A DNA stretch of 56,444 nt from an uncultured Candidatus Saccharibacteria bacterium (GCA_964615225.1 CAZTMV010000001.1:1-56444), one strand, 5' to 3'. Positions 1,589 through 19,970 are shown, counted from the first letter of the stretch. A program made the numbers and translations. The notes: generated from the letters alone by a model not told the origin.

Positions 1589-1624
1589 GAATTCGTGTGG
1601 GAAGGGTTATATACTGGTAGGCAT

Positions 1625-3016
1625 ATGAAGACTCTTCTAATTGGCGTCGTTACTATCGCTGCGTTCGCTTTTCCATCCATGGCTTTTGCATGGGGAAATG
1701 CTGCGGGTAACGGTCCGAACTTCCCCGTTAACCTCGATATGTCGTCGTCAGTTACTATAACTGCAACGCCCAACGTCATAACTGCAGGAGAAGAGACGTA
1801 TGTTCGATGGGGCACGTTCTTGCTGTCTGCTGAGGAGCATGCGCAGTGCACCACAAACTTCACCTACACGCCGCGCGCGGGGACCATGACCGATCAGGGG
1901 AATGGGTACTGGGCTATTGAAGACCCAGGAGGTTACTTGAACGACTACCCAACAGCAACCAAGACGTATACCGTTACGTGTCCTCGTTGGTACACCACTC
2001 AGCTGGGACAGACGACGCATCATGATACGCAGACAGTAAGCGTAACGGTGACGGTTGTTGCGGCAAGTAATACCGACCTCACGGCAAGCACGATCGCGCC
2101 AACCAGCATCGTGTCCGGACTTCCCGTTACGTTCACTTCAACGATCTCAAACGTCGGCGCTGAGGCAACGCCTACAGGATTCACGACGCTCTTCCAGCTT
2201 GCCATTGATACTGCTGGTACGCTCGCGTCAGATATAGGAACGTTTGCACGAACAACTCCACTCTCAGCGTCGTCGAACTTTACGGCGACCTATCAGTATG
2301 ACAACCCTCCGCTTGCGGCTAACTCATTCCTCTATCTGCGCTCGTGTGCAGACAAGAGTTCCGGCGCGGACGTAGGATCCATCAGTGAATCGTCTGAGGC
2401 GAACAACTGTAGTCCATGGACGCGCGTCGATATTTCTGCAACTACTATCCAGTGTTCGGATGGCATAGATAACGACAGCGACGGCCGTATTGATACTGCG
2501 GATACGGGCGACTGTACGGGACCGACCGACCCGACCGAGGGAACCGAGGTTACGGCAACCCTTACTGCAAATCCGACTGCCGTGGCGCTCGGAGAGTCCT
2601 CGACGCTTACCTGGTCTTCAACCGGAGCAACGTCTTGTACTGGCATCGGCTTCAACACGAACGGCGCGACGTCAGGCTCCACCTCGGTCTCTCCTGCAAA
2701 TACTGCCAACTACATCGTTACCTGTACCGCTCCTGGCGGATCTGATACCGCGTCAGCAACTGTGACGGTAGGCGCTGCAGCAACCGCAGACATCTCAGTC
2801 GCTCCAGAGCGCGTAGCGTCCGGCAGCTCGGCAACCGTTACCTGGTCCTCAACCGGCGCAACCGTCTGTAGCGTGGCAGGCCCTGGCCTCTCCTCAGCAG
2901 CGGTCTCGGGAAGCCAGAGTGTGACCGTGACCAAGCAGCAGACCTATACCATCTCCTGCGGCACGGCGACTGACTCGGCAACCGTCAACATCATCCCTCG
3001 GTTCGAGGAATTCTAG
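1625..3016 (+). CDS. secreted multi-domain surface protein (CARDB-like domain plus repeated Ig-like TWSSTGA domains)
   Basis: Start moved to the internal ATG giving signal peptide [22 protein letters not shown]. The segment [33 protein letters not shown] is CARDB-like. Two tandem domains are present ([15 protein letters not shown]... and [15 protein letters not shown]...). A hairpin terminator follows. Confidence 0.65.
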
Positions 3017-3393: not shown

Positions 3394-4344
3394 ATGGAGT
3401 ACTCCCCGGATTTTAAGAAGAACTTTGCAACCGCATACCTTGCGGAGGAGTACGAGCGTATCGAGGCGGAGAAAGTCTCTGCGGTAGAGGCTGCAGGGGA
3501 TGATGCGGTGTTGAAGGAAATGGCTGCAGAAGATGTTGCGCGCATTGAGGCTAGGCAGGCAGAGATTTTGGTAGAGATCGGGCGCATTTTGGATAAAGAA
3601 AAAGAGGAGGAAAGTAAGCCCAAAGCGATTGTCTTGGAGTTTCGCGCGGCCGCGGGAGGGGACGAGGCAACGCTGTTTGCCAAGGAGCTGCGTGAGATGT
3701 ACGAGCGTTATGCTGAGACCCAGGGCTGGAGCGTACGTTCTATTGATGACCTGACGGTCGAGATTGCGGGGGAGGCTGCGTATGACGCGCTTCGCTATGA
3801 AACTGGCGTGCATCGCGTGCAGCGCGTGCCGGTCACCGAGAAGTCGGGACGTATCCATACTTCGACTGCGTCCGTTGCAGCGCTCCCGATCCGCACCAAG
3901 CCGAAGTTCGAATTGAACCCCTCGGATCTGGAGATGGAGTTCTCTCGCTCGGGAGGCGCGGGCGGCCAGAACGTGAACAAGGTGGAAACGGCAGTGCGCC
4001 TCATCCATAAGCCGACCGGTATCGATGTGCGCTCATCCTCCGAGCGAAGCCAGAAGGCGAACCGCGAGAAGGCTATGCAGATATTGTCTGCAAAGCTCGA
4101 GAATCTGCACGAGGAAGAAGAGGCCAAGAAGAACGCCGCAGAGCGCAAGGGACAGATCGGGACGGGAGACCGCTCTGAGAAGATCCGCACGTATAACTAC
4201 CTCCAGGACCGCGTCACTGACCACCGCATCAAGGAGTCCTGGCACAATCTGCCGGCCATTTTAGGGGGTAAATTGGACAATATCGTGGACACCCTCAAGG
4301 AGCGGGCGGCCTCAGGGGGTATTGGGCCTGCCGAGGAGGAGTAA
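3394..4344 (+). CDS. prfA: peptide chain release factor 1 (short N-terminus)
   Basis: [21 protein letters not shown] (PxT-type codon-recognition loop) and [24 protein letters not shown] (GGQ motif); 316 aa. Confidence 0.9.
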
Positions 4345-4381
4345 GTTGCGGATTAGGGGGTTCTAGCGTATATTTTCCCTC

Positions 4382-5083
4382 ATGACTACCGATACTACGG
4401 CTGGAGTTGGCGTTGACCGCTTGTTTGCGGTGGGCGCTCACTTTGCTCAGGTAAAGAGCCGCCGCCACCCTTCTATGAAGTCCTTTGTCGTTGGAGCAAA
4501 GGCAAAGGTCGAGATCTTCGACCTCGTTAAAACTGATGCCCAGCTTGCTGCGGCTAAGAAAGCTCTCGAGACCCTGTCTCGCGATGGTAAGACCGTTCTC
4601 TTCGTAGGCGGCAAGCGCGAGGCGTCTGATATTGTTAAGACCATTGCGCGCCGCATCAACGCTCCGTACGTTGCCGGTCGCTGGCTCGGCGGTACCGTCT
4701 CTAACTTCGTTGAGATCAAGAAGCGCATTGATCGCCTTGCAGATTTGCTCGGCAAGCGCGATTCCGGCGAGCTCGCAAAGCTCTACACCAAGCTTGAGCG
4801 CGTTTTCATCGACCGCGAAATCGAGCGCTTGTCTGAGCGTCTTGATGGCATCACCGAGCTTCAGAAGCGCCCAGACGCCTTTGTGATTGTGGACACGAAG
4901 TTCGAGGCGCACGCAGTCCGCGAGGCAAAGCGCGCCGGCATCCCGGTTATCGCGCTCATGAGCTCCGATTGCGATCTTAAGGATGCGCAGTACCCAATCG
5001 TGATGAACGATGCGTCTCGCGATGCACTCAAGCTTGTGCTTGATGAGCTTGCAGCTGCCTACGAGGCAGGCAAGAAGGCGTAA
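4382..5083 (+). CDS. rpsB: 30S ribosomal protein S2
   Basis: LFAVGAHFAQVKSRRHPSMKSFVVG...VLFVGGKREA...; conserved rpsB-tsf synteny. TATATT lies 7 nt upstream of the ATG. Confidence 0.85.
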   Translation: MTTDTTAGVGVDRLFAVGAHFAQVKSRRHPSMKSFVVGAKAKVEIFDLVKTDAQLAAAKKALETLSRDGKTVLFVGGKREASDIVKTIARRINAPYVAGRWLGGTVSNFVEIKKRIDRLADLLGKRDSGELAKLYTKLERVFIDREIERLSERLDGITELQKRPDAFVIVDTKFEAHAVREAKRAGIPVIALMSSDCDLKDAQYPIVMNDASRDALKLVLDELAAAYEAGKKA

Positions 5084-7228: not shown

Positions 7229-8482
7229 TTAACCGCGCCAGCCGCGCTTAGTGCCGGTAGCAACGTCTGCAACCGAGCGGATAAGCCAGAACGGAGCGAC
7301 AAGGCCGTAGAGCAAGATCCAGCCGACCAAGTCGACGCTGATGTTGCCAGGAGTCTGGGAAATCCTGCGGCCGACGAGAATGAAGAGAATGGAGCCGATA
7401 AGAGCAATTATTGAAAGGAGTGCGAACATCGTGAGCGGGATGTAGAACCACTCCATGGTGCCCAGTTTCGGAATGAGGTTGGAGAGCGTGTACGAAAGGG
7501 GGACGCCGGAGGTAACGATGACCGCCTGCGTGATGCTGTGAGCAAGCTGCCAGAGCACCACTGCAAACAAGAGGATGCCGCCAACGATCGCAAAGAAGCC
7601 AAGCGGAAGCACGATGGTGCCGAGCGCGCCGTAGCGCGGGTTGCCGATCAAGTCGCGGTAGTCATGCATCATGTTGCGCAGGAAGCCGGAGGTCCAGCGG
7701 GTGCGCTGCTTAACGAGTGCTGGAACCGTGCGCGGTCCCTTGGTGTAGACGCGTGCGCGAACCGCGCTATCAATCGTGTAGCCTGCACGCTGGATGCGAA
7801 GCGCCATTTCCATGTCCTCGGTCTGGTGTCCGTAGCGGAAGCCACCAAGCTCAACGAGTACGGAGCGGCGGTAGAGAGAGAAGGGGCCCGGGGTCACGTA
7901 GAGGCCGTTCACGGCTGCAAGAATATGGCGAAGTGCGATACCGAGGATGAACTCCGCGTTTTGCATGCGCTCCAGGAGGTTGGTCGGCTTATGGATCGAC
8001 ATTGCCGGAGTTGCTGCAGCGACCATCGGATCGTCGAAGCAGGCGACGATTTCGCGCATCGCCTCTGGAGAGACGAATGAGTCTGCGTCCAAGCAGCCGA
8101 CAATTTCCGCGTCTTGCGCGATTTCAATACCCCTGTTGATGGCGCTGTGCTTGCCGCCGTTCTCCTTATGCACCACGGTGATCTGCGGATGGCCCTGATA
8201 TGCATCCATGACGTTCTTGGTGTTATCGGTTGAGCCGTCGTTCACGAGAATGATCTGCAGCTTGTCTGCTGGGTAATCCAGCGCGAGCAGGGAATCAACC
8301 GTTCCCTTGATCGTGCGCTCCTCGTTCCAGCAGGGAACGATCATTGCCACCTTCGGGGTCTTGGTAGAAGCGCCGCGCTTTCTTGCAGCGACCGCTGGGC
8401 GGGACAGGAAGGTCACCAGCAAAAAGGCCTGAAAATAGACGGCCGCGAAGAGAAACGGGTACGCTACGTAGGTGAGATCCAT
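7229..8482 (-). CDS. integral-membrane family-2 glycosyltransferase (processive, QxxRW type)
   Basis: VAMIVPCWNEE...LVNDGSTDNT...GCLDADS...QRTRWTSG, plus N- and C-terminal TM helices. The start was chosen at the internal ATG (MDLTYVAY...) because the longer ORF would overlap pheS and its promoter. Confidence 0.8.
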   Translation of the reverse strand: MDLTYVAYPFLFAAVYFQAFLLVTFLSRPAVAARKRGASTKTPKVAMIVPCWNEERTIKGTVDSLLALDYPADKLQIILVNDGSTDNTKNVMDAYQGHPQITVVHKENGGKHSAINRGIEIAQDAEIVGCLDADSFVSPEAMREIVACFDDPMVAAATPAMSIHKPTNLLERMQNAEFILGIALRHILAAVNGLYVTPGPFSLYRRSVLVELGGFRYGHQTEDMEMALRIQRAGYTIDSAVRARVYTKGPRTVPALVKQRTRWTSGFLRNMMHDYRDLIGNPRYGALGTIVLPLGFFAIVGGILLFAVVLWQLAHSITQAVIVTSGVPLSYTLSNLIPKLGTMEWFYIPLTMFALLSIIALIGSILFILVGRRISQTPGNISVDLVGWILLYGLVAPFWLIRSVADVATGTKRGWRG

Positions 8483-8530
8483 AAGCCCGTAAACGTGAGA
8501 GTAAGTATAGCAAATTGGCCCTCTTTTTCC

Positions 8531-8536
8531 TATACT
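8531..8536 (+). promoter_or_regulatory. -10 box TATACT 6 nt upstream of the pheS ATG (leaderless type)
   Basis: ttcc-TATACT-agagcg-ATG. A divergent TATACT for the GT2 gene lies at 8509-8504. Confidence 0.5.
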
Positions 8537-8542
8537 AGAGCG

Positions 8543-9274
8543 ATGCAGGAAGGAAAGCTCCATCCCATGACGATTGCCATCCGCGAGATCGCGGACATCT
8601 TCGGCCGCATGGGTTTTTCTATTGCGTCAGGTCCCGAGCTTGAAGACGACTGGCATAACTTCACCGCGCTCAATGTGCCGGAGGATCATCCGTCGCGCGA
8701 TATGCAGGACACCTTCTGGACGAAGGAGACTCCTGCGCGCGTCCCGCGTACGCAGACCTCGTCAGTGCAGATCCGCTACATGGAAGAAAAGATGCGCGAG
8801 GGTGCCGCGCCGCCGTACCGCATCGTGGTGCCGGGAAAGGTGTTCCGTAATGAAGCAACTGATGCAACACACGAAGCGCAGTTCTACCAGAACGAAGGAT
8901 TGGTGATTGATCGCGACATTACGCTCGCGCACTTGAAAGGAACCCTCGATCAGTTCTTCAAGGAATATTTGGGAGCTGAGGCGAAGGTGCGTTTTCGTCC
9001 AAGCTACTTTCCGTTCACCGAGCCGTCAGTGGAAGTAGACGTGTGGTTTGAAGCTCCAGGTAAAGAAGGTAAGTGGCTTGAGGTTATGGGTGCGGGCATG
9101 GTGCATCCGCAGGTGCTCCGGAATGCTGGCGTGGACCCAGAGCAGTACCAAGGCTTTGCCTTTGGAGGCGGCATCGAGCGCTTGGTTATGGTCAAGTACG
9201 GCGTGCCGGACGTACGCTTGTTCCATAACGGTGACATTCGCTTTGTGCACGGCTTTGACGAAACTGTCGTATGA
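8543..9274 (+). CDS. pheS: phenylalanine-tRNA ligase alpha subunit, catalytic core only
   Basis: GKLHPMTIAIREI...GPELEDDWHNFTALNVPEDHPSRDMQDTFW...FRPSYFPFTEPS...GFAFGGGIERL. About 243 aa, starting exactly at the catalytic core. Confidence 0.9.
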   Translation: MQEGKLHPMTIAIREIADIFGRMGFSIASGPELEDDWHNFTALNVPEDHPSRDMQDTFWTKETPARVPRTQTSSVQIRYMEEKMREGAAPPYRIVVPGKVFRNEATDATHEAQFYQNEGLVIDRDITLAHLKGTLDQFFKEYLGAEAKVRFRPSYFPFTEPSVEVDVWFEAPGKEGKWLEVMGAGMVHPQVLRNAGVDPEQYQGFAFGGGIERLVMVKYGVPDVRLFHNGDIRFVHGFDETVV

Positions 9275-11157
9275 AAGTCTCTAAAAAATGGCTAGAAAAG
9301 TATTTTGATGCACCGCTTCCTGACACGAAGGAGCTTGCGGACCTGTTTACCTTCCATGCGTTTGAAATCGAAGAAGCAGAGGGAGATCTGCTTGATGTGA
9401 AAGTACTCCCGGATCGCGCGGCATATGCGCTTTCGCATCGCGGCATTGCAAGCGAGGCCGCCGCTATCTTGAACCGTCCTTTGAAAGTGGATCCGTTGAA
9501 GCAGCCTGCTCCTGCCTTTGCTCCAACTGATGCACTTACAGTAACGATCGAAGACGAGAAGAAATGCTTCCGCTATATGGGTGCAGTTATTACGGGCGTA
9601 AAAGTCGGGCCGTCTCCTGCGTGGCTTACGGAAGCGCTTGAGTCGGTGGGCCAGCGTTCCATCAATAACGTAGTGGATGCAACGAACTACGTGATGCTTG
9701 ATATCGGCCAGCCGCTGCACGCATTTGATGCGCACAAGCTCACTGCCAGAGAAGGCAAGCGTATGATTTCGGTGCGTGGTGCTGCAGCCGGAGAGAAAAT
9801 CACGACCCTCACCGGCGACGAGTACACGCTTCCGGAAGGAACACTCTTGATCGTGGATGCAGCAGCAAACGTCCCGGTAGGCATTGCAGGTGTGAAGGGA
9901 GGGAAGGCTGCAGAGATTGATGCAAGCACGACAGAGATCGTGATTGAGTCGGCGAACTTCGACGGATCAATGGTGCGCAAAGCAGCGCAGTCGTTGAAGC
10001 TGTTTACGGACGCCTCAACGCGCTACCAGAACCGTATTTCCCCTGAGCTTGCAGGCTACGGCATGGATGCAGTCACGAAACTCATTCTCCAGATTGCGGG
10101 AGGCGAGCTTCGCGGCGTTGTTGACGTGCGCGCAGGGTTGCCGCAGGAACATCTGGCTCCGATCCACATTTCGCTTGAGAAGATTAACCGCATGCTCGGC
10201 ACCGAGCTTGGCGCGCACGACGTTGCGCATGCGCTTGATCGTCTGGGCCTTTCGTTTGTCGAGGAATCGCGTGCGTTTTCAATCACGCCCTCATTTGAGC
10301 GTCGCGATATACAGATTCCGGAAGATGTTGCAGAAGAAGTCGGCCGCATCTTGGGGTATGACAAAGTCCCTTCCATCATGCTTCCGCCGCTCCCGGTTGC
10401 GCCTGATCAGTTGAAGTTCCGCGGCATTGAGCGCGTGAAAGACCTGTTGGTCGAGCGCGGGTTTACGGAAATTTCAACGCCAGCGTTTGCGGTTTCTGGA
10501 GAGGTGGAGCTTGCTAATCCGCTGCAAAGCGATAAGCCATGGCTTCGCGCAACGCTGCAAGACAACATGGAGGAAGCGCTCACGCGCGCAGTGCAAGTTG
10601 CACCCAAAGTGCTCGGTCCGGATCACAGTGTCCGGTTGTTTGAAGTAGGGAATGTGTTCACTGCTTCCGGCGAGCGTCTGATGCTCTCCTTGGGATACAA
10701 GGCAGTGATCGGTAAACCAAAACCAGTTATGGCGGAAATTGCAGATGCGCTCTCGGACCTGCTTTCCATGAGCATTGCTGCTGCAGGTGATGTCATCGAA
10801 GTTCCACTTGGGGAGACAGATCTTGAAAAGCTTGGTGCAGACTATGAGCCGAGGAAGATCGTGTTACAGAAGTTCCGTCCCTTCTCTATGTATCCGTTTG
10901 CACTTCGAGATATTGCGGTGTGGTCTCCTGCAGGAACAGAGGAAAGCGAGGTTTCAAATGCCATTCTTGCGGAAGCAGGGGATTTGGTCTCGCGCATGGA
11001 CCTCTTTGATCGCTTTGAAAAAGATGGACGAGTATCGCATGCCTTTCGTCTAGTATTCGAATCTTCCGAGAAGACGTTGTCCGATGCAGACTTGAATCCA
11101 GTGATGGGGCGCGTGACCGTAGCGCTGAACGCAAAAGAGGGCTGGGAGGTACGATAA
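9271..11157 (+). CDS. pheT: phenylalanine-tRNA ligase beta subunit (lacks the OB-fold B2 domain)
   Basis: MKVSKKWLEKYF... (B1), B3/4 region NNVVDATNYVMLDIGQPLHAFD, B5, and a C-terminal FDX-ACB-like end. ATGA overlap with pheS; 628 aa. Confidence 0.9.
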   Translation: MKVSKKWLEKYFDAPLPDTKELADLFTFHAFEIEEAEGDLLDVKVLPDRAAYALSHRGIASEAAAILNRPLKVDPLKQPAPAFAPTDALTVTIEDEKKCFRYMGAVITGVKVGPSPAWLTEALESVGQRSINNVVDATNYVMLDIGQPLHAFDAHKLTAREGKRMISVRGAAAGEKITTLTGDEYTLPEGTLLIVDAAANVPVGIAGVKGGKAAEIDASTTEIVIESANFDGSMVRKAAQSLKLFTDASTRYQNRISPELAGYGMDAVTKLILQIAGGELRGVVDVRAGLPQEHLAPIHISLEKINRMLGTELGAHDVAHALDRLGLSFVEESRAFSITPSFERRDIQIPEDVAEEVGRILGYDKVPSIMLPPLPVAPDQLKFRGIERVKDLLVERGFTEISTPAFAVSGEVELANPLQSDKPWLRATLQDNMEEALTRAVQVAPKVLGPDHSVRLFEVGNVFTASGERLMLSLGYKAVIGKPKPVMAEIADALSDLLSMSIAAAGDVIEVPLGETDLEKLGADYEPRKIVLQKFRPFSMYPFALRDIAVWSPAGTEESEVSNAILAEAGDLVSRMDLFDRFEKDGRVSHAFRLVFESSEKTLSDADLNPVMGRVTVALNAKEGWEVR

Positions 11158-11523: not shown

Positions 11524-13599
11524 ATGGCAAAAGCTAAGGAAAAAGACGCTTCTGGAGCGGGTAAGGGCAAGGCGTACGATGCGTCGTCTATTCAAGTGCT
11601 TGAGGGGTTGGATCCGGTACGCAAGCGCCCGGGAATGTACATCGGTACCACCGGTCCCGATGGTCTCCACCACCTGATCTGGGAAATCTTCGACAACTCG
11701 CGCGACGAGGCGATGGGCGGATTTGCAAACGATATCGAAGTCGCGCTGCTTCCAGGTGGGTATATCCGCGTTGCTGACAACGGTCGCGGTATTCCGGTAA
11801 ATATCCATCCGAAGACAAAGCTGTCTGCGCTTGAAATGGTTATGACCCAGCTGCATGCCGGTGGTAAGTTTGGCGGCGAGGACTCTGGCTACAAAGTGTC
11901 GGGAGGTCTGCACGGCGTGGGCGCATCGGTCGTGAACGCGCTTTCCACTAACGCAAAAGTCATCGTGCACAAAGATGGCGGCGTACACACGCAGGAGTAC
12001 AAGATCGGTAAGCCGCAAGGGAAGGTAAAGCAGATCGGTAAATCAAACCTGCACGGCACCATTACGTACTTCCGTCCAGACGAAACAATCTTCACTGCCG
12101 GTATTGAGTGGAATTGGGACAAGATCGTCGCGCACCTGCGTCAGCAGGCATACCTGGTGAAGGGTGCACGCATTAGCGCTATCGATGCGCGCGAGAATGC
12201 GCTTGCAGCTGAAAGCGAAGACGTGCACTACCTGCGCGAGCTCGGGCTTGAGGTGCCGTCGATGACCTTCTACTTCGAAGGAGGACTTCGTTCCTTGGTT
12301 TCGTTCTACAACCAGCGCCAGACGCCGGTGCATAAGAATATTTTCTACGTTGATTCTGAGAAGGACGGCGTGATGGTGGAGGTCGCGCTCCAGTATGTTG
12401 ACGACATTTCGCCGAAGCTGATGGCGTTTGCAAACAACATCTACAACCCAGAGCACGGTACGCATGTGACCGGTTTCAAGACAGCGCTCACGCGCACCTT
12501 GAACTCCTACGGCCGCAAGGCAGGCATCCTTAAAGAGAGCGAGGAGAACTTCACCGGAGACGATGCTCTTGAGGGCATCACAGCAGTGGTCTCAATCAAG
12601 ATGCCGGAGATCCAGTTCGAGGGACAGACGAAGGCAAAGCTCGGATCCGTTGAAGCGCAGGGCGCAACCGCAACCGTGTTTGGAGACGCATTTGCCTCAT
12701 TCCTCGAAGAGAATCCAGATGATGCAAAGGCAATCATCAACAAGGTGCTGCTTGCTTTGAAGGCGCGCAAGGCGGCAAAGGCTGCGAAGGACTCCGTGCT
12801 TCGCAAGGGTGCACTCGAGGGCATGACGCTGCCGGGCAAGCTTGCAGACTGTCAGACCAAAAACGCAGAAGAATCAGAGCTGTTTATCGTAGAGGGAGAT
12901 TCGGCAGGCGGTACTGCTAAGACCGGACGCGACCGCCGCACACAGGCAATTCTTCCGCTTCGCGGAAAGATCTTAAACATCGAGCGAGCACGCCTGGATA
13001 AGATGCTTGCGTCTGAACAGATCAAGAACCTTGTGGTAGCTCTTGGTACGGCGATTGGAGATGTCTTTGATATCGGCAAGCTGCGTTATCACAAGGTCAT
13101 CATTGCAACGGATGCCGACGTGGACGGCGCACACATTCGCACGCTCTTGTTGACGTTGCTGTTCCGTCACTTCCGTCCACTTATTGATGCTGGCTACATT
13201 TACATTGCACAGCCGCCTTTGTACAAGCTCACCCGCGGCAAGGAAGTGTTCTACGCCTACACCGATGAGGAGAAATTTAAGATCGTAGGCAAGGAGGCTG
13301 TTGCAGAAACAGCTGACGAACCTCCTGCAGAAGAGGAGACGCCGGAAGGAGAAGAGGAAGACACCAAGAAGAAGGCGCCAAAGAAGTTCAACCAGCAGCG
13401 CTACAAGGGTCTTGGAGAAATGAATGCCTCTGAGCTTTGGGAAACTACCATGGACCCGGCTCGCCGCGTGTTGAAGCGCGTAACGGTAGAGGATGCTGCA
13501 GAAGCAGACCGCATCTTCGATATCCTTATGGGCACCGACGTTGCAAGCCGCAAGTCATTCATCCAGTCGAACGCAAAGCTAGCGAATCTGGACGTATAA
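11524..13599 (+). CDS. gyrB: DNA gyrase subunit B
   Basis: YDASSIQVLEGLDPVRKRPGMYIG..., EGDSAGG, PLRGKILN, DADVDGAHI, QRYKGLGEMN. TGcTATACT lies 15 nt upstream. Confidence 0.95.
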   Translation: MAKAKEKDASGAGKGKAYDASSIQVLEGLDPVRKRPGMYIGTTGPDGLHHLIWEIFDNSRDEAMGGFANDIEVALLPGGYIRVADNGRGIPVNIHPKTKLSALEMVMTQLHAGGKFGGEDSGYKVSGGLHGVGASVVNALSTNAKVIVHKDGGVHTQEYKIGKPQGKVKQIGKSNLHGTITYFRPDETIFTAGIEWNWDKIVAHLRQQAYLVKGARISAIDARENALAAESEDVHYLRELGLEVPSMTFYFEGGLRSLVSFYNQRQTPVHKNIFYVDSEKDGVMVEVALQYVDDISPKLMAFANNIYNPEHGTHVTGFKTALTRTLNSYGRKAGILKESEENFTGDDALEGITAVVSIKMPEIQFEGQTKAKLGSVEAQGATATVFGDAFASFLEENPDDAKAIINKVLLALKARKAAKAAKDSVLRKGALEGMTLPGKLADCQTKNAEESELFIVEGDSAGGTAKTGRDRRTQAILPLRGKILNIERARLDKMLASEQIKNLVVALGTAIGDVFDIGKLRYHKVIIATDADVDGAHIRTLLLTLLFRHFRPLIDAGYIYIAQPPLYKLTRGKEVFYAYTDEEKFKIVGKEAVAETADEPPAEEETPEGEEEDTKKKAPKKFNQQRYKGLGEMNASELWETTMDPARRVLKRVTVEDAAEADRIFDILMGTDVASRKSFIQSNAKLANLDV

Positions 13600-13600
13600 G

Positions 13601-13628
13601 AAAAAGCCCCGCTTGAGCGGGGCTTTTT
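13601..13628. terminator. bidirectional intrinsic terminator
   Basis: AAAAAgccccgc-ttga-gcggggcTTTTT. Confidence 0.8.
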
Positions 13629-13629
13629 C

Positions 13630-14310
13630 TTAATCTTCAATCTCGAGTTCGACCGTGTCGTCGTTGTTGCGCTCGTTAGATTCTGAAACTGCGTTCTGGT
13701 AGTCGACATCAATTTCAATTTCCATAGAACGGTTCGGCTTCGGGTCCGTGATGCGGAGCGTGAAATTTTGAGAGCCGTTCGGGAGCAGGTAGCCGCCGTT
13801 GCCGATTGCAGTATCGTCTCCCTCGACATCAATGCGTACGCGCCAGTTTGCAGCTGCGTTGGTGCCGATGTTGCGGACAGTGAACTTGAGGCCTGCATCG
13901 CGGCCTTCAGGAACCTGATCATCCTCGACGAATGAGTTGCCGCGGAAGTAGCCTGTCTCGACATTGACGAGTGCGAGATCTGCTTGGCCATAGAGGTTTG
14001 GCGTGGTCTGCGTAACGACTGGAGGATAGTAGCCGATGATCGGCGTAGTTGGGGTGGTTGGCTTAGCTGGGGTTGTGGTTGCAGTAGGAGTAGCCGGGCG
14101 AGACGGGGTAGTGGTTGCTGCTGGGGTCTCGTCATTCTCTTCAGGGTCTGAGGAAAGAATTACCGCTGAGGAAAGGCGCGAGAGTGTCTCAGGCACATAG
14201 CGTGCTGCGTAGATTGCAAGGAAGATGCCGGCAATCAAAAGCGCACCGAAGCCAACGATCGCAAGACCGTTCAGGGCGGGTTTCTTTGGGGCGGTAGTAG
14301 TGTCTGCCAT
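13630..14310 (-). CDS. N-terminally anchored cell-surface protein with Pro/Thr linker and CARDB-like domain
   Basis: TM helix LAIVGFGALLIAGIFLAIYAA, a PT-rich linker, then DLALVNVE...LKFTVRNIGTNAAANWRVRIDVEGDD...SESNERNNDDTVELE. TAGATT lies 9 nt upstream of the ATG. Confidence 0.6.
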   Translation of the reverse strand: MADTTTAPKKPALNGLAIVGFGALLIAGIFLAIYAARYVPETLSRLSSAVILSSDPEENDETPAATTTPSRPATPTATTTPAKPTTPTTPIIGYYPPVVTQTTPNLYGQADLALVNVETGYFRGNSFVEDDQVPEGRDAGLKFTVRNIGTNAAANWRVRIDVEGDDTAIGNGGYLLPNGSQNFTLRITDPKPNRSMEIEIDVDYQNAVSESNERNNDDTVELEIED

Positions 14311-14385
14311 ATGGTCAGTAATCTACGACAGGAGTCTTGATATGTCAAGGGGTTTCAGAAACGGCATGGTAGAGTGACTGTACCT

Positions 14386-15000
14386 ATGGCTTCGACCGCG
14401 TTTGAGAAAGTGTATGCACGCAAGTGGACCTTTGTCGGCGTGTTTACGCTCGTGTATTTCGTATCCTTGTCCGCACTCGCATCCTTCGGGCTGGCTCCGT
14501 GGTCTACGAGCTTTTCTGATGTGCGGCCGGGCCAGCAGATTCAGGGCGTAGTGCAGGGCGAGCTGCCAGTCGGAATCGAGATTCCATCGATCGGCCTCAA
14601 GGCAAACGTCCTGAACCCGAACACGACTGATATTGCAGCGCTCGATGCAGAACTCACCAAGGGCGCGGTCCGCTACCCAGGTTCTGCGGTCCCTGGCGAA
14701 GAGGGCAATGTGCTTATCTTCGGACACTCCAGCTATCTGCCGGTGGTGCATAACCAGGCATACAAAGCCTTCAACGGCATCCAGAATTTGGAAGAGGGAG
14801 CACCTATTTTCGTCGTGGGAGAGACCAAGGTGTTTATCTACGCAGTAGAAGAAGTACAGAAAGCGAACACCTCGACCGGAGAGATTCCGCTTGCCATTGA
14901 GGGAGCGAAGCTGACCCTGGCAACCTGCGATACGTTCGGGGCGAAGTCTGACCGTTTTATCGTGACGGCGAAGCTGGTGCGGGTGGAGGAATTGCGCTGA
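14386..15000 (+). CDS. sortase-family transpeptidase
   Basis: N-terminal TM anchor, GNVLIFGHSSY (His motif), KLTLATCD (TLxTC catalytic Cys). The start is set at the ATG 10 nt after TGGTAGAGT; the ORF-track start at 14374 lies inside the -10 box. Confidence 0.8.
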   Translation: MASTAFEKVYARKWTFVGVFTLVYFVSLSALASFGLAPWSTSFSDVRPGQQIQGVVQGELPVGIEIPSIGLKANVLNPNTTDIAALDAELTKGAVRYPGSAVPGEEGNVLIFGHSSYLPVVHNQAYKAFNGIQNLEEGAPIFVVGETKVFIYAVEEVQKANTSTGEIPLAIEGAKLTLATCDTFGAKSDRFIVTAKLVRVEELR

Positions 15001-15032
15001 TTCCAGGCCTTATTTCTTAGGTAGGTAGGAAC

Positions 15033-15061
15033 TTGACAAATCCTATATTTACTGATACATT
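15033..15061 (+). promoter_or_regulatory. canonical sigma70-type promoter TTGACA-17-TACATT
   Basis: TTGACA 15033-15038, 17-nt spacer, TACATT 15056-15061, in an AT-rich spacer upstream of the 15097 gene. Confidence 0.6.
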
Positions 15062-15096
15062 CATTTCAATTCCACCCATTTAGAGAAAGGGAACCG

Positions 15097-15555
15097 ATGG
15101 AAGGGTTCATTAAAGGCGTGTGGGCAGTGTGTGGCGTTTTCGCTGCGATCCTGCTTGGGCTTCTCCTTCTCGGCATTCTGCCGAATCTCCGGTTCAACCT
15201 CTCTTGGGCAGGTCAGCCTCCCCAAGTGATGAGCTCGGAGATCCAAGGAGGGCCGCACATCGCCGAACAATCTCCGGCTGGCGTCGTTCTCACGGGCGCG
15301 CCTCACCCGGCACCTCCTCATATGAACGGTGGTCCAGCAATGGCCCCGCAACGTGAAGAGGCACCCCGCCTTGGCCAACTGGTCGGACGCAATTCCGTCC
15401 CGGCTTCGCAGGAAGGTGGCCGGTGTCCGACCGGGCAAATCACCTATGGTGAACATGCTCGCGTCTGCACCGGCCAGGAACTCCGACCCACGGGTCGCGA
15501 GTGCCGCACCAATCCAGCGACCGGCGAACGTGAATGCCGGCCGATGCGCCAATAA
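15097..15555 (+). CDS. hypothetical membrane-anchored/secreted protein with Cys-rich C-terminus
   Basis: Hydrophobic N-terminus VWAVCGVFAAILLGLLLLGIL, Pro-rich middle, C-terminal CPTG...VCTG...ECRTNPATGERECRP. SD AAGGGA upstream; a palindromic hairpin follows. Confidence 0.5.
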   Translation: MEGFIKGVWAVCGVFAAILLGLLLLGILPNLRFNLSWAGQPPQVMSSEIQGGPHIAEQSPAGVVLTGAPHPAPPHMNGGPAMAPQREEAPRLGQLVGRNSVPASQEGGRCPTGQITYGEHARVCTGQELRPTGRECRTNPATGERECRPMRQ

Positions 15556-15567
15556 AAGGCATAAACA

Positions 15568-15595
15568 AGGGCTCAGATGCATGCATCTGAGCCCT
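15568..15595 (+). terminator. perfect 28-nt palindrome/hairpin after the 15097 gene
   Basis: agggctcagatgc|gcatctgagccct, with no clear T tract. Confidence 0.45.
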
Positions 15596-15607
15596 TACTA
15601 CATGGTC

Positions 15608-15636
15608 TTGACATATGGTATTTGATGGTTTATTAT
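15608..15636 (+). promoter_or_regulatory. canonical sigma70-type promoter TTGACA-17-TATTAT
   Basis: TTGACA 15608-15613, 17-nt spacer, TATTAT 15631-15636. An approximately 108-nt leader with small hairpins precedes the SD GGGGGAG. Confidence 0.65.
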
Positions 15637-15750
15637 AGATAAGAAGGGAAAATACTCTACTGGTAGCTTTCTGTCCGGGAACAAGGGTTCCTCGCCAGCA
15701 AGCTCTCCGTAGGGAGAGTGTTCCTCAACAGATCCAGAAAGGGGGAGAAG

Positions 15751-16614
15751 ATGTTCAAGCATCTAATCCTAACTCTGCTGGCGATCGCGACGGTTACTGT
15801 TGCGACGCTGGCGCCGGCTCACGCCGAGACTACGTGGACGACTTGGGGGGAAGCTCCCTACGCAACCTCGCAAGAGGAAGCGATCAGGCGGCTCCCTGAT
15901 GCACTCCGCGATCTGAATATTCCAGAGCCCGTTCGGGCTCTCCTCCAGGCGGAGGTGCAGCGTAACCCGCAAGGGACGCGCGTGTACCTCACTCCTGGCA
16001 AGCGCTTCTTAGGGATGATGACAGGAGGGGTTCGCCCCCATGCAATGCATGATGTTGTTGTCGGACGCAATCCGGTTCGCCGGGGTGCCGTCCAAGCTGC
16101 TGAGGCCCGCGAATGGCGGGTGGACTACGAGGGTCAAACGTACATCCTCACGTTGCCGGATATCTGTTACAACTGGGCGTGGAATCAAGAACCACTCCCG
16201 CAGGAGGTTGCGCTTGAAGAATGCGCGATCGTGGAAGTCGCGGTGCAGCAGGGAGATTTCCTGCAGCTCGCGGTCTTTTCCGGCGCTTCGCTTCCGTCTT
16301 CGCATTGCTGGGGCTATCAACAGTCCGGCGAGTGGGAGATGTGGGGCGAGTGCGTGGAATGCCCTCCCTGGGCATCGATCATTGGAAACGTTCCGGCAGC
16401 TGACCGCAGGGTCCGCATGCCGGGAGTTATCCGGGTCACACGAACGGGCTTCGTACAAGTACGTGTTCCGGTCGCGGTCGAACGTCATCACTTGGCGTTT
16501 TACCTCGAACGAAACGGCTTGTGCAGCTGGGTGATTGTAGAGCCAAGCGATTGGCGTTCGCACTCCTTCCGGCTAACCGAGGCGCACTGGACATGGCGGC
16601 CGCAAGGCAGCTAA
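15751..16614 (+). CDS. hypothetical secreted Trp/Cys-rich protein
   Basis: Signal peptide MFKHLILTLLAIATVTVATLAPAHA-ETTW, six Cys, many Trp, strong SD (AAAGGGGGAGAAG-ATG). No recognisable family. Confidence 0.6.
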   Translation: MFKHLILTLLAIATVTVATLAPAHAETTWTTWGEAPYATSQEEAIRRLPDALRDLNIPEPVRALLQAEVQRNPQGTRVYLTPGKRFLGMMTGGVRPHAMHDVVVGRNPVRRGAVQAAEAREWRVDYEGQTYILTLPDICYNWAWNQEPLPQEVALEECAIVEVAVQQGDFLQLAVFSGASLPSSHCWGYQQSGEWEMWGECVECPPWASIIGNVPAADRRVRMPGVIRVTRTGFVQVRVPVAVERHHLAFYLERNGLCSWVIVEPSDWRSHSFRLTEAHWTWRPQGS

Positions 16615-16623
16615 CCAGTAGTA

Positions 16624-16665
16624 GATGGGCGGCATAACCTGCCGCCCATCACACCTCCTTTTTTG
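16624..16665 (+). terminator. intrinsic terminator
   Basis: gatgggcggc-ataacct-gccgcccatc followed by a TTTTTT tract. Confidence 0.65.
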
Positions 16666-16708
16666 TACGGGCGCAATTATTAGTCGTAGTGCCCTTTATT
16701 AAATCCCT

Positions 16709-17815
16709 ATGATTACCACTTCAAACAACAACATTCAGGTATCGCGTTCTGCTCTTTCGGGCGTTTTCCGTGTACTCATGCTTGCGGTCTTCGCTAGCGT
16801 GTTTGCGTTCACGGCGACTCTCATCATGCCTGCAACGGCAGAGGCGACCATCTCCGGTTACGGAGACTGTGTTAGCTGTGGATGGGAGCCAGAGTACGAG
16901 GTATATAACACCTACGACTACTACGACTACGGCTGGGAACCGGAGTACGAGGTGTACAACACCTATGACTACTACGATTACGGTTGGGAGCCGGAGTACC
17001 AGACGTACAACACCTACGACTACTACACCTACGACAGCGGCAACTACTGGGGCGACTACTACTATGAGCCGTACTACGTAGACTACTCATACGGGTACTA
17101 CGATTACGACTACGGTGGCTGTTACTCTAACTGTTACCAGCCGGTAGAGCCGGTATGTGCCATGAGCGCATCCGACACTACGATCGAGAAGGGTGACGAC
17201 GTCACTCTCCACTGGACCTCTGAGAACGCATACTCCGCAACGCTCTCAGGCTACGGCTCAGTTGCAACCGGCGGCAACCGCTCGGTCTCTCCAAACAAAG
17301 ACACGACCTACACCCTTACGGTGCGTGGTCAGGGCGGCACTGACACCTGTTCAGTTCGCATCAACGTCGAGGAGGATGAGGACGAGGATGATCTCTGGTG
17401 TGAGCTCGACGTTTCCGACTCTCGCGTAGAGGAGGGCGACGAGGTAACGCTTGAATGGGATACCCGTGGTGCAAGCTACGCTTCCATCAACCAGGGCGTC
17501 GGCCGCGTTGACGAGGATGGTGGCGAGGAGGAAGTAGAGGTCGATCGCGACACTACATTCCGCCTCACCGTTCGCGACAATGATGGCGACGAGGAGACTT
17601 GTACGGCAACCGTACGCGTTGATGACGAGGATGATTTCTCTTCTATCTCATTCAACGGCGATCCGGTAAACAACCCGCCGACCGTCTACCTCTCCCAGCT
17701 TCCGTACACCGGTCTTGAGGATATGTCTCCAAGCTTGATGGCAGCAATCGTCATGCTTGCAGGCCTCCTTGGCATCGGCGGCTACTTCTTCTTCGTGAAG
17801 CGCCGCACTGCCTAA
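16709..17815 (+). CDS. LPXTG-anchored surface protein with Tyr-rich tandem repeats and two Ig-like domains
   Basis: N-terminal signal/TM, three GWEPEYEVYNTYDYYDY repeats, two TLxW...TYTLTV-type domains separated by acidic linkers. The C-terminal sorting signal is LPYTG, a hydrophobic helix and KRRTA. Confidence 0.8.
   Translation: MITTSNNNIQVSRSALSGVFRVLMLAVFASVFAFTATLIMPATAEATISGYGDCVSCGWEPEYEVYNTYDYYDYGWEPEYEVYNTYDYYDYGWEPEYQTYNTYDYYTYDSGNYWGDYYYEPYYVDYSYGYYDYDYGGCYSNCYQPVEPVCAMSASDTTIEKGDDVTLHWTSENAYSATLSGYGSVATGGNRSVSPNKDTTYTLTVRGQGGTDTCSVRINVEEDEDEDDLWCELDVSDSRVEEGDEVTLEWDTRGASYASINQGVGRVDEDGGEEEVEVDRDTTFRLTVRDNDGDEETCTATVRVDDEDDFSSISFNGDPVNNPPTVYLSQLPYTGLEDMSPSLMAAIVMLAGLLGIGGYFFFVKRRTA
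16880..17032 (+). repeat. 3 x 51-bp in-frame tandem repeat (17-aa Tyr/Asp-rich unit)
   Basis: Units at 16880-16930, 16931-16981 and 16982-17032. Units 1 and 2 encode identical peptides but differ at 7 positions, all synonymous. Confidence 0.9.
17699..17713 (+). other. sortase recognition motif LPYTG
   Basis: ctt ccg tac acc ggt, followed by a 21-residue hydrophobic stretch and KRRTA. Confidence 0.8.
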
Positions 17816-17827
17816 CGGCTAGCGACT

Positions 17828-17860
17828 GAAACGGCCCCGCATATGCGGGGCCGTTTCATT
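17828..17860 (+). terminator. intrinsic terminator
   Basis: gaaacggccccgc-atat-gcggggccgtttc followed by ATTT. Confidence 0.75.
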
Positions 17861-17876
17861 TGGTAGAATGCTTGCA

Positions 17877-18164
17877 ATGGATATCGGCAGCCTCATGTAC
17901 TTCGGCGCACTCGCTCTCTGGAGCGGGGCAGTAGCGTACTTCATCCTGGAGAAGTTCTTCCCGCAGCCTGCTGTTGAGGAAACTACCGAGCGCGTACGAA
18001 GCGATATTGCCTTTCCGATACACGTTCCTGCGCCCGAGAAAGTGGAAGCACTTCCAGCGCAGCCCATGCCCGACTACCAGCTCACTGAAGGCTTCAAGGC
18101 GTTTCAGTCCGGAGCAGAGCTCACGGTCGAGGACATTGTGAAAGGACTTTCCCGTAGGGATTAG
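17877..18164 (+). CDS. hypothetical small membrane protein
   Basis: MDIGSLMYFGALALWSGAVAYFILEKFF... with TGGTAGAAT 7 nt upstream. The ORF-track start at 17868 lies in the -10 box. Confidence 0.45.
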   Translation: MDIGSLMYFGALALWSGAVAYFILEKFFPQPAVEETTERVRSDIAFPIHVPAPEKVEALPAQPMPDYQLTEGFKAFQSGAELTVEDIVKGLSRRD

Positions 18165-19390
18165 CTCCTTGCTGCAATCTCGCTCTTGAGCTGTGCGATA
18201 ACTGCATCGATGCCCATGGCGTCGAGCTTGCCTTTATCGCGGCTTTCAACAGACGCGGTGCGCGCCTCGACTTCAGCATCTCCAAGCACGAGTACGTATG
18301 GTACGTGCTCAGATTTTGCGTTGCGGATCTTCTTACCTAGAGACTCATTTGCAGCATCAAGCTCAACGCGAATACCCGCCTCGCGAAGCAAGGTGTACAC
18401 CTCATGCGCATACGCAGCGTGCTTCTCGGAAATAGGGAGGACCTTTGCCTGCACCGGCGCAAGCCAGAGCGGGAAGGCACCTGCGTATTTCTCGATCAAG
18501 AAGGCCATCGTGCGCTCGATAGAGCCGATCGATGAGCGATGCACGACAAACGCCATGTGTTGTTTCCCGTCCTCGCCGGTGTAGGTGAGGTCGAACTTCC
18601 TCGGAGACGAAAGGTCGTACTGCACCGTAAAGGCAGTGTCCTCTTTGCCGTTCACGTTTTTCATCTGAATATCGATTTTCGGACCATAGAAGGCTGCTTC
18701 GTCCTTGGCTTCCACAAATGGTACGCCGCGCTTTTGCATCGACTCGCGAAGCAGCATCTCAGCCTTCTCCCAGCCTGCGTCATCCTTGAAATACTTCTCA
18801 GTGTTCGCGCGGTCTCCAAGCGAGAGGCGGTACGAGTAGTCTTCGCCAGCCTTGAGTCCCAACACGCTGTTTGCGTACTCGATCAGGTCAAGCGCCTTCT
18901 CGATTTCCTCGATCGCCATTTCTTCTGTAGCGCAGATGATGTGTGCGTCTGACAGGCAGAAGGAACGTACGCGCTGGAGGCCCATCAATTCGCCGGACTG
19001 TTCGTAGCGGTAGAGCTTAGCAAGCTCGGCGTAGCGGATCGGCAGCTCGCGGTAGCTGTGCGGGGAGCGCAGGTAGAGCTCGAAGTGGTGCGGGCAGGTC
19101 ATCGGGCGGAGCATGAACTTCTCGTCCTCATCCTCAATCGGCGCGTACATCGAGTCCTTGTAGTGCGGGTAGTGACCCGACTTTTCATAGAGCTCGATCT
19201 TCGCGATGTCCGGAGTTATGACGTGCTGGTAGCCGCGCTTGAGTTCTTCGTCCACGATAAAGCGCTCGAGCTCGCGGCGGATTGCGGCACCCTTAGGGGT
19301 CCACAGCGGAAGGCCCTTGCCGACGGAGTCGGAGAAGGTGAAGAGGTCTAGTTCACGGCCCAGTTTCTTATGATCGCGGTCGATATCCAT
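18161..19390 (-). CDS. thrS: threonine-tRNA ligase, catalytic and anticodon-binding domains only
   Basis: Starts MDIDRDHKKLGRELDLFTF (the class II core begins here); MLRPMTCPHH, FRYEQSGEL..GLQRVRSF, and a C-terminal anticodon-binding domain. 409 aa. The longer ORF start at 19468 would read through a terminator hairpin. Confidence 0.9.
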   Translation of the reverse strand: MDIDRDHKKLGRELDLFTFSDSVGKGLPLWTPKGAAIRRELERFIVDEELKRGYQHVITPDIAKIELYEKSGHYPHYKDSMYAPIEDEDEKFMLRPMTCPHHFELYLRSPHSYRELPIRYAELAKLYRYEQSGELMGLQRVRSFCLSDAHIICATEEMAIEEIEKALDLIEYANSVLGLKAGEDYSYRLSLGDRANTEKYFKDDAGWEKAEMLLRESMQKRGVPFVEAKDEAAFYGPKIDIQMKNVNGKEDTAFTVQYDLSSPRKFDLTYTGEDGKQHMAFVVHRSSIGSIERTMAFLIEKYAGAFPLWLAPVQAKVLPISEKHAAYAHEVYTLLREAGIRVELDAANESLGKKIRNAKSEHVPYVLVLGDAEVEARTASVESRDKGKLDAMGIDAVIAQLKSEIAARS

Positions 19391-19410
19391 AGTGGTGGTA
19401 AGTATAGCCA

Positions 19411-19438
19411 ATAAAAAGCCCCGCTGCTGAGGCGGGGG
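19411..19438 (-). terminator. intrinsic terminator 20 nt upstream of the thrS ATG (attenuator terminator)
   Basis: Minus strand CCCCGC-cucagca-GCGGGG-CUUUUUAU. Confidence 0.7.
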
Positions 19439-19480
19439 TAGTTGTCTTTCAGTTAGGAGAACGACCACACCGCCAGGGCG

Positions 19481-19519
19481 CTAGAGCGCAGTGGTGGTAG
19501 TGGTTGTGCGAAATGCCAT
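19481..19519 (-). CDS. candidate Thr-rich leader peptide MAFRTTTTTTAL
   Basis: atg gca ttt cgc aca acc act acc acc act gcg ctc tag. The ATG is 8 nt after a TATACT -10 box, and six consecutive Thr codons occupy 19507-19490. Confidence 0.55.
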   Translation of the reverse strand: MAFRTTTTTTAL

Positions 19520-19527
19520 ACCTAGAA

Positions 19528-19555
19528 AGTATAGCCCTGAGTATGTTCTTGTCAA
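19528..19555 (-). promoter_or_regulatory. canonical promoter TTGACA-16-TATACT driving the thrS leader
   Basis: Minus strand TTGACA (19555-19550), 16-nt spacer, TATACT (19533-19528). Confidence 0.65.
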
Positions 19556-19585
19556 AACAGAAGTGCCGGCCCAGAGGGCCGGCAC
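19553..19585 (-). terminator. intrinsic terminator of the dnaE-downstream gene
   Basis: Minus strand gtgccggcc-ctctg-ggccggcac followed by TTCTGTTTTG. Confidence 0.7.
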
Positions 19586-19595
19586 TGTGAGAGGT

Positions 19596-19970
19596 CTATG
19601 CGGCGAGTCTGACGCACGCATAGTCTGCGGTTTTGAACAGGGCATTCCGTAGAACGATCCCTAAATGGGATCGAAGCGGCATGCGCTCCGAAGGAACGAT
19701 GCGTTCAAGCGTGAGCTTGCCTTCATTGGCAGCTCGCTCGATTACATCCTTTCTCGGCACCTTGTCAGGAAACACACGCGCGAACGCTCTCGTGCATTCC
19801 GTAAGGAACACAAGGCGCTGCGTCGAATGCAGCTGTTTGAACGGCTCAGAAGTTTCATGTAGCAACTTTGCTCGGATTGCTCCGGAGCGTTGCGGACTCT
19901 TCTCGAGTTCCTCAAAAGCGATCTGGTACGCGCACTTGATCTTCTCAAGCGCACAGGCCACATCATTCAT
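19596..19970 (-). CDS. hypothetical protein (co-transcribed downstream of dnaE)
   Basis: 124 aa, SD GAGAGGAG upstream, no terminator between it and dnaE. No recognisable family. Confidence 0.5.
   Translation of the reverse strand: MNDVACALEKIKCAYQIAFEELEKSPQRSGAIRAKLLHETSEPFKQLHSTQRLVFLTECTRAFARVFPDKVPRKDVIERAANEGKLTLERIVPSERMPLRSHLGIVLRNALFKTADYACVRLAA

Follow-up and report, generated by a model that had tools for sequence, protein, structure and literature searches.

The locus described here raises a question about sortase substrates: what becomes of the part that lies beyond the cut? In textbook substrates the sorting signal is short and disposable. The stretch of DNA analysed (the window; 56,444 nucleotides, GCA_964615225.1 CAZTMV010000001.1:1-56444, from an uncultured Candidatus Saccharibacteria bacterium) encodes, within positions 13630-18164, a sortase and a surface protein with an LPYTG motif (the cargo); in related genomes, whose records bear the names Candidatus Kaiserbacteria and Paceibacterota, the corresponding signal normally carries a conserved cytoplasmic protein. 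The window is the most informative variant so far, in that the precursor is divided between two genes, with the break almost exactly where the sortase is predicted to cut. The reading we favour, to which we give a probability of roughly 0.65, is that a dedicated sortase cuts and wall-anchors one acidic, tyrosine-rich surface protein with immunoglobulin (Ig)-like repeats, and that the tail works as a separate membrane protein. Judged from sequence comparison, the locus appears to be the lineage's dedicated surface-display cassette.

A sortase and its one substrate

The sortase gene (14386-15000, + strand) encodes 204 amino acids (aa) with an N-terminal transmembrane (TM) anchor. The protein matches the Pfam Sortase family (PF04203) with an E-value of 3.6e-20 and 72.4 bits against a cut-off of 26.6, and its GHSSY, TLATC and DRFIV segments align with GHRN, TIVTC and DRYIV of the solved sortase 4D70, the segments of the catalytic His, Cys and Arg. 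The start codon, ATG at 14386, agrees with the N-termini of relatives. Exactly one sortase is encoded in the whole assembly that holds the window (632 kb in 39 contigs, 87% complete).

The cargo gene (16709-17815, +) encodes 368 aa: a signal peptide (residues 1-45), Tyr/Asp-rich repeats, two Cys-bracketed Ig-like modules, and a sorting signal. The signal peptide was judged by inspection, from a hydrophobic segment at residues 14-44 that ends in ATAEA. The sorting signal (17687-17815, +) consists of YLSQ-LPYTG (LPYTG at 17699-17713, residues 331-335), LED, a TM helix at about residues 343-362, KRRTA and the stop codon TAA; it passes the TIGR01167 LPXTG_anchor model with 20.0 bits against a cut-off of 15.9. 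Six-frame scans of the whole genome for C-terminal or internal signals alike found one credible protein combining PxTG with a TM helix; the sole other LPxTG match is FtsW. The CARDB protein, orfA, orfB and the small open reading frame (ORF) that share the locus have no sorting signal, and sortase and cargo lie 1.7 kb apart within 632 kb. The single-cargo statement covers the assembled part of the genome.

The pairing extends to relatives. Among 40 representatives, 21 of the 24 genomes of the genus and 8 of the 16 from the order's other families have the sortase, and a cargo-like repeat protein lies 2-3 kb 3' of the sortase on the same strand; genus genomes without the sortase are also without the tail module described below. 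From named genomes 80 loci were retrieved, and in all 48 of those with at least 1.8 kb of sequence upstream of the cargo the sortase lies 0.1-2.5 kb upstream of it. The window's VYLSQLPYTG with its TM helix conforms to a YLSQxPYTG pattern common to 92 related cargos, from which the motif statistics were drawn. Their consensus is QPLAYLYLSQIPYTGLDLGPVGT, or Y-L-S-x-x-P-x-T-G in outline; 77 of the 92 have IPYTG, and the G is invariant though the pattern did not force it. The length of sequence before the motif spans 63-1794 aa in these cargos, which marks the ectodomain as the variable part and the signal as the constant part.

An earlier note on this DNA had described six ORFs with their motifs here, among them a divergent N-anchored CARDB protein, a sortase with GHSSY and TLATC, and a 368-aa protein ending in LPYTG, a helix and KRRTA. 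All six, with their motifs, were recovered at the same coordinates, and the profile matches given here bear out the three identifications. The proposal that sortase and LPYTG protein form a dedicated pair likewise stands: the two are co-conserved and syntenic in every related locus with enough flank, and the genome has no scattered LPxTG proteins. The description of the sortase as housekeeping-type has to be dropped, since a hidden Markov model search against the NCBIfam class models (NF033745-8, TIGR01076, TIGR03784) gave none at its cut-off. The best class score is that of class E (48.5 bits against 160), and TIGR01076 scores 34.6 against 39.35; the sortases of two relatives likewise fall below the class cut-offs.

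The canonical paradigm of LPXTG sorting is Staphylococcus aureus SrtA with protein A. The window shares with it the transpeptidase fold, the His/Cys/Arg triad and the N-terminal TM anchor of the enzyme, and the signal peptide, LPxTG, helix and basic tail of the substrate. Unlike that system, it has one sortase and one substrate side by side, the sortase falls below all class cut-offs, the pentapeptide sits within a longer conserved YLSQxPYTG[LIV][DE], and the short tail is recently derived from a conserved cytoplasmic one of about 265 aa. Staphylococcal SrtB and IsdC (with NPQTN) also form a pair in which a specialised sortase lies in its substrate's locus; such genomes also have a housekeeping sortase with many substrates. 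The window resembles this pair in setting a specialised sortase beside its single substrate with a variant pentapeptide, and differs in that the assembled genome has no sortase system besides the dedicated pair.

In the mechanism that we propose, the cargo's signal peptide would direct its export, and its C-terminal helix would keep it in the membrane, YLSQ-LPYTG lying immediately outside. The sortase, itself membrane-anchored and with its triad intact, would cut between Thr334 and Gly335 and pass the ectodomain on to the cell wall, where lipid II or peptidoglycan is the likeliest acceptor. The genome encodes FtsW and an MraY-like enzyme, which makes such an acceptor plausible. In most Kaiserbacteria the leaving group would be a conserved protein of about 265 aa and not a short stub.

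A tail fused in relatives and separate in the window

In 88 of the 92 cargos the motif is internal and is followed by a signature TM helix and a conserved cytoplasmic tail, with a median of 266 aa. The helix has the signature YWxxLxxWSxAxAY; the tail behind it includes GYSSYDGFKSF...LSIDDIVKGLSR and, at its C-terminus, a helical domain of about 110 aa (GDRxAVFAGL ... TGAKLALTRALA). No Pfam or NCBIfam model covers the family, which is present in 158 species-level genomes; the module occurs in a single copy per genome, always within the sortase locus. The papers searched mention sortases of the Candidate Phyla Radiation (CPR) in passing, and none mentions the IPYTG signal or the long tail.

The window's cassette is like the fused cassette of Kaiserbacteria and Paceibacteria in its sortase, CARDB and orfB families, in YLSQxPYTG, in the Ig-like module and in chromosomal position. 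It is unlike it beyond the motif. The cargo's TM helix lacks the signature YWxxLxxWSxAxAY, being a different anchor helix that runs into KRRTA and a terminator; neither the signature helix nor the EGFKSF...DIVKGLSR motif is on the cargo polypeptide, both lying in a separate ORF past the stop codon and the terminator; and the domain resembling a clamp-loader collar is missing. The helical domain had no match at E<=1 in any of the six frames of the assembly.

The junction is laid out as follows. The cargo's stop codon TAA occupies 17813-17815, and the next ATG, at 17877, is in another reading frame. Between them lies an intrinsic-terminator hairpin (17829-17856, +), in which AAACGGCCCCGC-ATAT-GCGGGGCCGTTT forms a perfect hairpin and is followed by CATTT as a T-rich run; the intergenic sequence folds at -45 kcal/mol. 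An extended -10-like element, TGGTAGAAT (17861-17869, +), stands 7 nt before the ATG. Three other assemblies, designated L046, L048 and L050 and found among the nearest relatives that were reached via orfB matches, share the arrangement, and the split clade accordingly comprises four independent assemblies. An equivalent hairpin is present in each of the three, the element lies 6-7 nt before the small ORF's ATG in four of four, and terminator, extended -10 and ATG follow in the same order in all four. The spacing suggests that the small ORF's transcript is leaderless. Promoter and terminator calls in this study are pattern matches only.

The small ORF (17877-18164, +) encodes 95 aa: a short N-terminus, the signature TM helix LMYFGALALWSGAVAYFIL, a Pro-rich linker and EGFKAF...LTVEDIVKGLSRRD. 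Its signature helix and its motif identify it as a homologue of the first part of the fused tail, and jackhmmer matched it to 16 fused tails as well as to three ORFs that stand alone. When 1.84 billion representative proteins were searched, the window's ORF had full-length matches in about 26 clusters of stand-alone proteins 84-124 aa long. Stand-alone tail proteins start 1-6 residues after the predicted T|G site. These comparisons indicate that the ORF is a detached homologue of a conserved tail, cytoplasmic and in most relatives part of the cargo itself, and that the KRRTA cargo end is a derived state and not the norm of the lineage. Downstream, 17976-18233 (+) has weak similarity to fused tails (37% identity over 89 residues) that runs through one stop codon into the 3' end of thrS; it may be a trace of a longer ancestral tail or a low-complexity alignment.

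The other split genomes differ in degree. In L046 and L050 the cargo ends in LPYTG[IV]ED, a helix, KR[KR]QVI and a stop codon, and a 96-aa ORF of its own comes next. L048 takes a middle position: its cargo retains IPYTGLED and a helix, together with about 110 cytoplasmic residues, which show a weak, collinear match (12 bits) to the first half of the helical-domain profile, and a separate ORF bears the helix and DGFRSF...DIVKGLSRE. In a tree of gyrB the window pairs with L048 (98/97). The clade that contains both (100/99) is otherwise made up of genomes with fused tails, the form found everywhere else too; the nesting of split genomes among fused-tail genomes means that the split is derived. 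In each of the trees of sortase, orfB and CARDB the four split genomes form a single clade (100/99 to 100/100); its stem is long, and L048 is the first to branch. Together with the intermediate state of L048, these trees fit a single stepwise origin, in which the partners diverged in concert. A fused precursor would have split first, with the helical domain still on the cargo, and the helical domain would then have been lost.

Other origins for this arrangement were considered. A frameshift or assembly error at the junction is ruled out by the clean TAA, the strong terminator, the promoter-like element and the agreement of four assemblies. Decay of the small ORF as a pseudogene is also ruled out: synonymous divergence (dS) is saturated among the four split genomes, and the frame is still open, with TM helix and motif conserved; the stand-alone clusters count against decay as well. 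At such saturation the ratio of nonsynonymous to synonymous divergence (dN/dS) carries no selection information here. A tandem DNA duplication as the source of the new anchor helix is unsupported, the local alignment scoring 36 against a shuffle mean of 22.9 and a shuffle maximum of 39.

The position of the split bears on whether PYTG is processed at all. The cargo could be an ordinary type I membrane protein in which YLSQxPYTG serves as a juxtamembrane structural or binding motif, with the sortase acting elsewhere or inactive; the internal motif with a long conserved tail behind it, in 88 of 92 cargos, is a layout absent from the sortase substrates described in the papers searched. This explanation is nevertheless improbable. 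The catalytic triad is intact and conserved, the assembly offers no other candidate substrate, and in the split clade what follows the motif is now a sorting signal of textbook form, with a score above the TIGR01167 cut-off. Moreover, with tail genes starting 1-6 residues from T|G, selection is unlikely to have split the precursor there unless this was a natural boundary. We argue that a gene split at the predicted cut marks the motif as a real cleavage site and the tail as acting in trans. By comparison with the fused form, two genes take the place of the precursor in the window's clade: the cargo retains a minimal LPYTG-TM-KRRTA signal and has a terminator, and the signature TM helix and its motif are encoded separately, as 95 aa, with a putative promoter of their own.

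A more specific proposal is that the precursor matures by sortase cleavage and that both products have functions, one as an adhesin that is linked to the wall and evolves fast, the other as a conserved membrane protein. The latter would either be needed by the sortase pathway as a partner or link display to a process in the cytoplasm, and its function would be under selection as a free 95-aa protein. We put this forward tentatively, as possible but with the odds against it. Among known systems, C-pep signalling comes closest to a remnant with a function. According to PMC11502775, citing Hall et al. 2019, C-pep is a membrane remnant from sortase A that acts on a histidine kinase in Streptococcus gordonii, so that a membrane fragment left after the sortase cut has a role of its own. 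C-peps are short generic stubs in two-component sensing, unlike the remnant here, which is a conserved protein with a motif, ancestrally with a folded domain, and separately encoded in the window; no kinase link was seen in our data.

The helical domain of the fused tail was modelled with a predicted local distance difference test score (pLDDT) of about 95. Its top 35 Foldseek matches are to clamp-loader gamma/tau/delta-prime domain III (E 7e-4, probability 1.0, 110-122 residues aligned), the collar domain of DnaX gamma/tau, delta and delta-prime (PF12169 and relatives). Sequence-profile comparison gave nothing against chains of the PDB, and hhalign against the genome's own DnaX gave a probability of 0.3. 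The modelled likeness is best taken as a resemblance of fold only.

Partner genes and the setting of the cassette

The CARDB gene (13630-14310, -) is the sortase's divergent partner. Its product has a single N-terminal hydrophobic helix (segment at residues 11-40) that forms the TM helix, a Thr/Pro-rich stalk and a C-terminal CARDB domain (PF07705; E 4.4e-11, 43.3 bits against a cut-off of 22.7). On its 5' side lies a sigma-70-like promoter match (14320-14348, -; TTGACA-17-TAGATT, 10/12), a consensus match only. The CARDB gene lies divergently beside the sortase in nearly all sortase-bearing representatives, and the pair is kept in seven of seven loci from the order's other families. In four loci (L062, L079, L121, L129) the CARDB gene instead stands just 3' of the cargo on the same strand, rearranged yet linked. 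In genome G017 (L028:3353-5766) two integrase/transposase-like ORFs lie between CARDB gene and sortase; they account for a 2-kb gap there and indicate that the divergent pair tolerates interruption.

Between sortase and cargo lie two further genes, which the earlier note took for secreted or membrane Cys-rich orphans. Location and composition are borne out, with hydrophobic N-terminal segments in both and 5 and 6 Cys in orfA and orfB, respectively; the orphan status is not. The product of orfB (15751-16614, +) is secreted and rich in beta structure; it has a signal peptide, four conserved Cys and an invariant LPxxCxNW. A local iterative profile search in which 24 loci were compared recovered the sortase in all 24, CARDB in 23 (the miss being a contig end), the tail module in 20 and the orfB family in about 19; in the larger set, 37 of the 48 loci have orfB between sortase and cargo. 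A profile search with orfB in a large protein database found two further members only. Its AlphaFold2 model (pLDDT 89.5) had no match in the PDB by Foldseek, the best E-value being 0.04. On this distribution orfB is a conserved third member of the cassette and not an orphan. Together with the CARDB stalk protein, it would be a conserved extracellular partner of the sortase pathway.

The product of orfA (15097-15555, +) is small and N-anchored; its middle is rich in Pro and Gly, and its C-terminus bears a four-Cys motif. No homologue was found among the 40 representatives. The ORFs at the corresponding place in L046 and L050 are collinear with it (24-26% identity) and have the N-terminal helix and the C-terminal four-Cys motif in common with it; orfA is a fast-evolving, clade-restricted protein. 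A sigma-70-like match precedes orfA (15033-15061, +; TTGACA-17-TACATT with TG, 10/12) and a near-consensus one precedes orfB (15608-15636, +; TTGACA-17-TATTAT, 11/12). Between the two genes, a perfect palindrome with a 16-bp stem (15564-15599, no strand assigned) is a likely terminator; it has a T-rich tail on the minus strand and might stop transcription in both directions, so insulating orfA from orfB.

The gene order gyrB, CARDB (-), sortase, orfB, cargo, thrS, dnaE is kept across the genus. The earlier note had regarded the locus as an accessory module, a description contradicted by the constant placement of the cassette (gyrB ... thrS/dnaE) across the genus and by the sortase-CARDB pair across the order. 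The same evidence bears on the idea of a strain-specific island of orphan genes acquired by transfer. Some observations would suit an island: orfA has no homologue in the 40 representatives, each gene seems to have its own promoter-like site (matches at CARDB, orfA and orfB), and the module and gyrB trees disagree for one genome. However, synteny already contradicts it, GC content is flat over the locus, and orfB, CARDB and sortase are conserved in tens of genomes, so that acquisition as an island is hardly tenable.

A sweep of 13000-19800 against Rfam matched no RNA family. The thrS gene (18161-19468, -) overlaps the small ORF by 4 nt, the stop codon of the latter lying in the stop region of thrS (18161-18164). 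It encodes a short threonyl-tRNA synthetase, a form of about 410-435 aa without the N-terminal editing region, which also occurs in G016, G024 and L046; a form of 578-586 aa is found in G017, G020 and L048, and length is thus polymorphic within the genus. Beside the cassette in L046, dnaE (L046:11248-14879, -) encodes an intein-bearing alpha subunit of DNA polymerase III (1472 aa), with intein-splicing and LAGLIDADG domains.

The ectodomain and its fate

The mature ectodomain of the cargo has 292 residues, among them 39 Tyr and 2 Lys, and an isoelectric point of 4.05. It has three tandem 51-bp units (16883-17033, +) encoding GWEPEYEVYNTYDYYDY, for which TRF reports a period of 51, 3.0 copies and 85% matches. 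Two modules of about 77 aa each follow (17147-17623, +; residues 147-222 and 229-305). The same module was found in 269 copies in 77 ORFs of related loci, with 2-11 copies per relative's cargo. Its matches are all sub-threshold (E 0.005-0.1) and all to Ig, PKD and Big models and to chains of titin, intimin and KIAA0319L, from which an Ig-like fold is proposed. The cargo sequence has no match among PDB sequences, and an exact-sequence look-up among public assemblies returned nothing on record. A role of the cargo in surface contact or adhesion, as suggested earlier, is plausible for a hypervariable, acidic, Tyr-rich, Ig-like-repeat ectodomain.

The module also occurs outside the cargo. A 495-aa secreted protein in the window (1529-3013, +) carries two copies of the Cys-bracketed module and no sorting signal, and a second such secreted protein, of 525 aa with one module, is encoded elsewhere in the genome (C2:31162-32736, -). 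In L048 the CARDB protein (4113-5081, -) has acquired an Ig module at its C-terminus that is almost the same as the final one of the cargo (7980-9332, +), which suggests domain exchange between the divergent genes.

This shared module is one of several observations that would fit a different use of the enzyme, as a protein-protein ligase or polymerase that joins the cargo's Thr334 to a lysine or N-terminal amine of CARDB, orfB or another cargo and so builds a membrane-tethered fibre. The CARDB stalk protein and orfB are conserved beside the sortase over a wider range than the tail, and the three module genes diverged together on one long branch. Yet pilus loci have several LPxTG pilins, at least two with a pilin-motif lysine beside the sortase, and here there is one motif-bearing protein per genome; the ectodomain has only its 2 Lys and no conserved pilin-type Lys motif, and of the models for the main sortase classes, that for class C gives the lowest score (26 bits). 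We regard ligation as unlikely.

Water could also serve as the acceptor, in which case the ectodomain would be shed and not anchored. The sequence data fit hydrolysis and transpeptidation equally, and orfB, secreted without an anchor, shows that the cassette also makes soluble products. Known sortases, however, prefer transpeptidation given an amine acceptor, genes for peptidoglycan and lipid II are present, and the repeat-stalk build suits a cell-attached protein; shedding seems a rather poor prospect.

Several points weigh against dedicated cleavage and wall anchoring with a separately working tail, and against the single origin proposed for the split. The sortase lies outside every curated class, so that its specificity is inferred solely from the adjoining motif. 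Gene order in tiny genomes can persist without functional coupling, and the three genus genomes without all four genes could share one assembly gap. A second substrate or a separate helical-domain gene could sit in the missing 13% of the assembly. Finally, the gyrB tree does not group the split set: L046 pairs with the fused-tail genome G003 (97/99). The conflict with the module trees suggests that related Kaiserbacteria have exchanged the cassette or gyrB by recombination, and the history may have involved exchange of the module or more than one event.

The lineage comprises hundreds of species of ultra-small, probably host-dependent bacteria, in which a lone sortase is paired with a single hypervariable surface protein. 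For the study of surface display, attachment and envelope biology in the CPR, the locus offers small, tractable reagents: a 204-aa sortase, a 13-residue motif peptide and a 95-aa membrane protein, with VYLSQLPYTGLED, YLSQIPYTGLDLG and YLSQIPYTGLDLGP as motif-bearing peptides. A sorting signal that is a disposable end in textbook substrates would, in this lineage, normally carry a conserved cytoplasmic protein.

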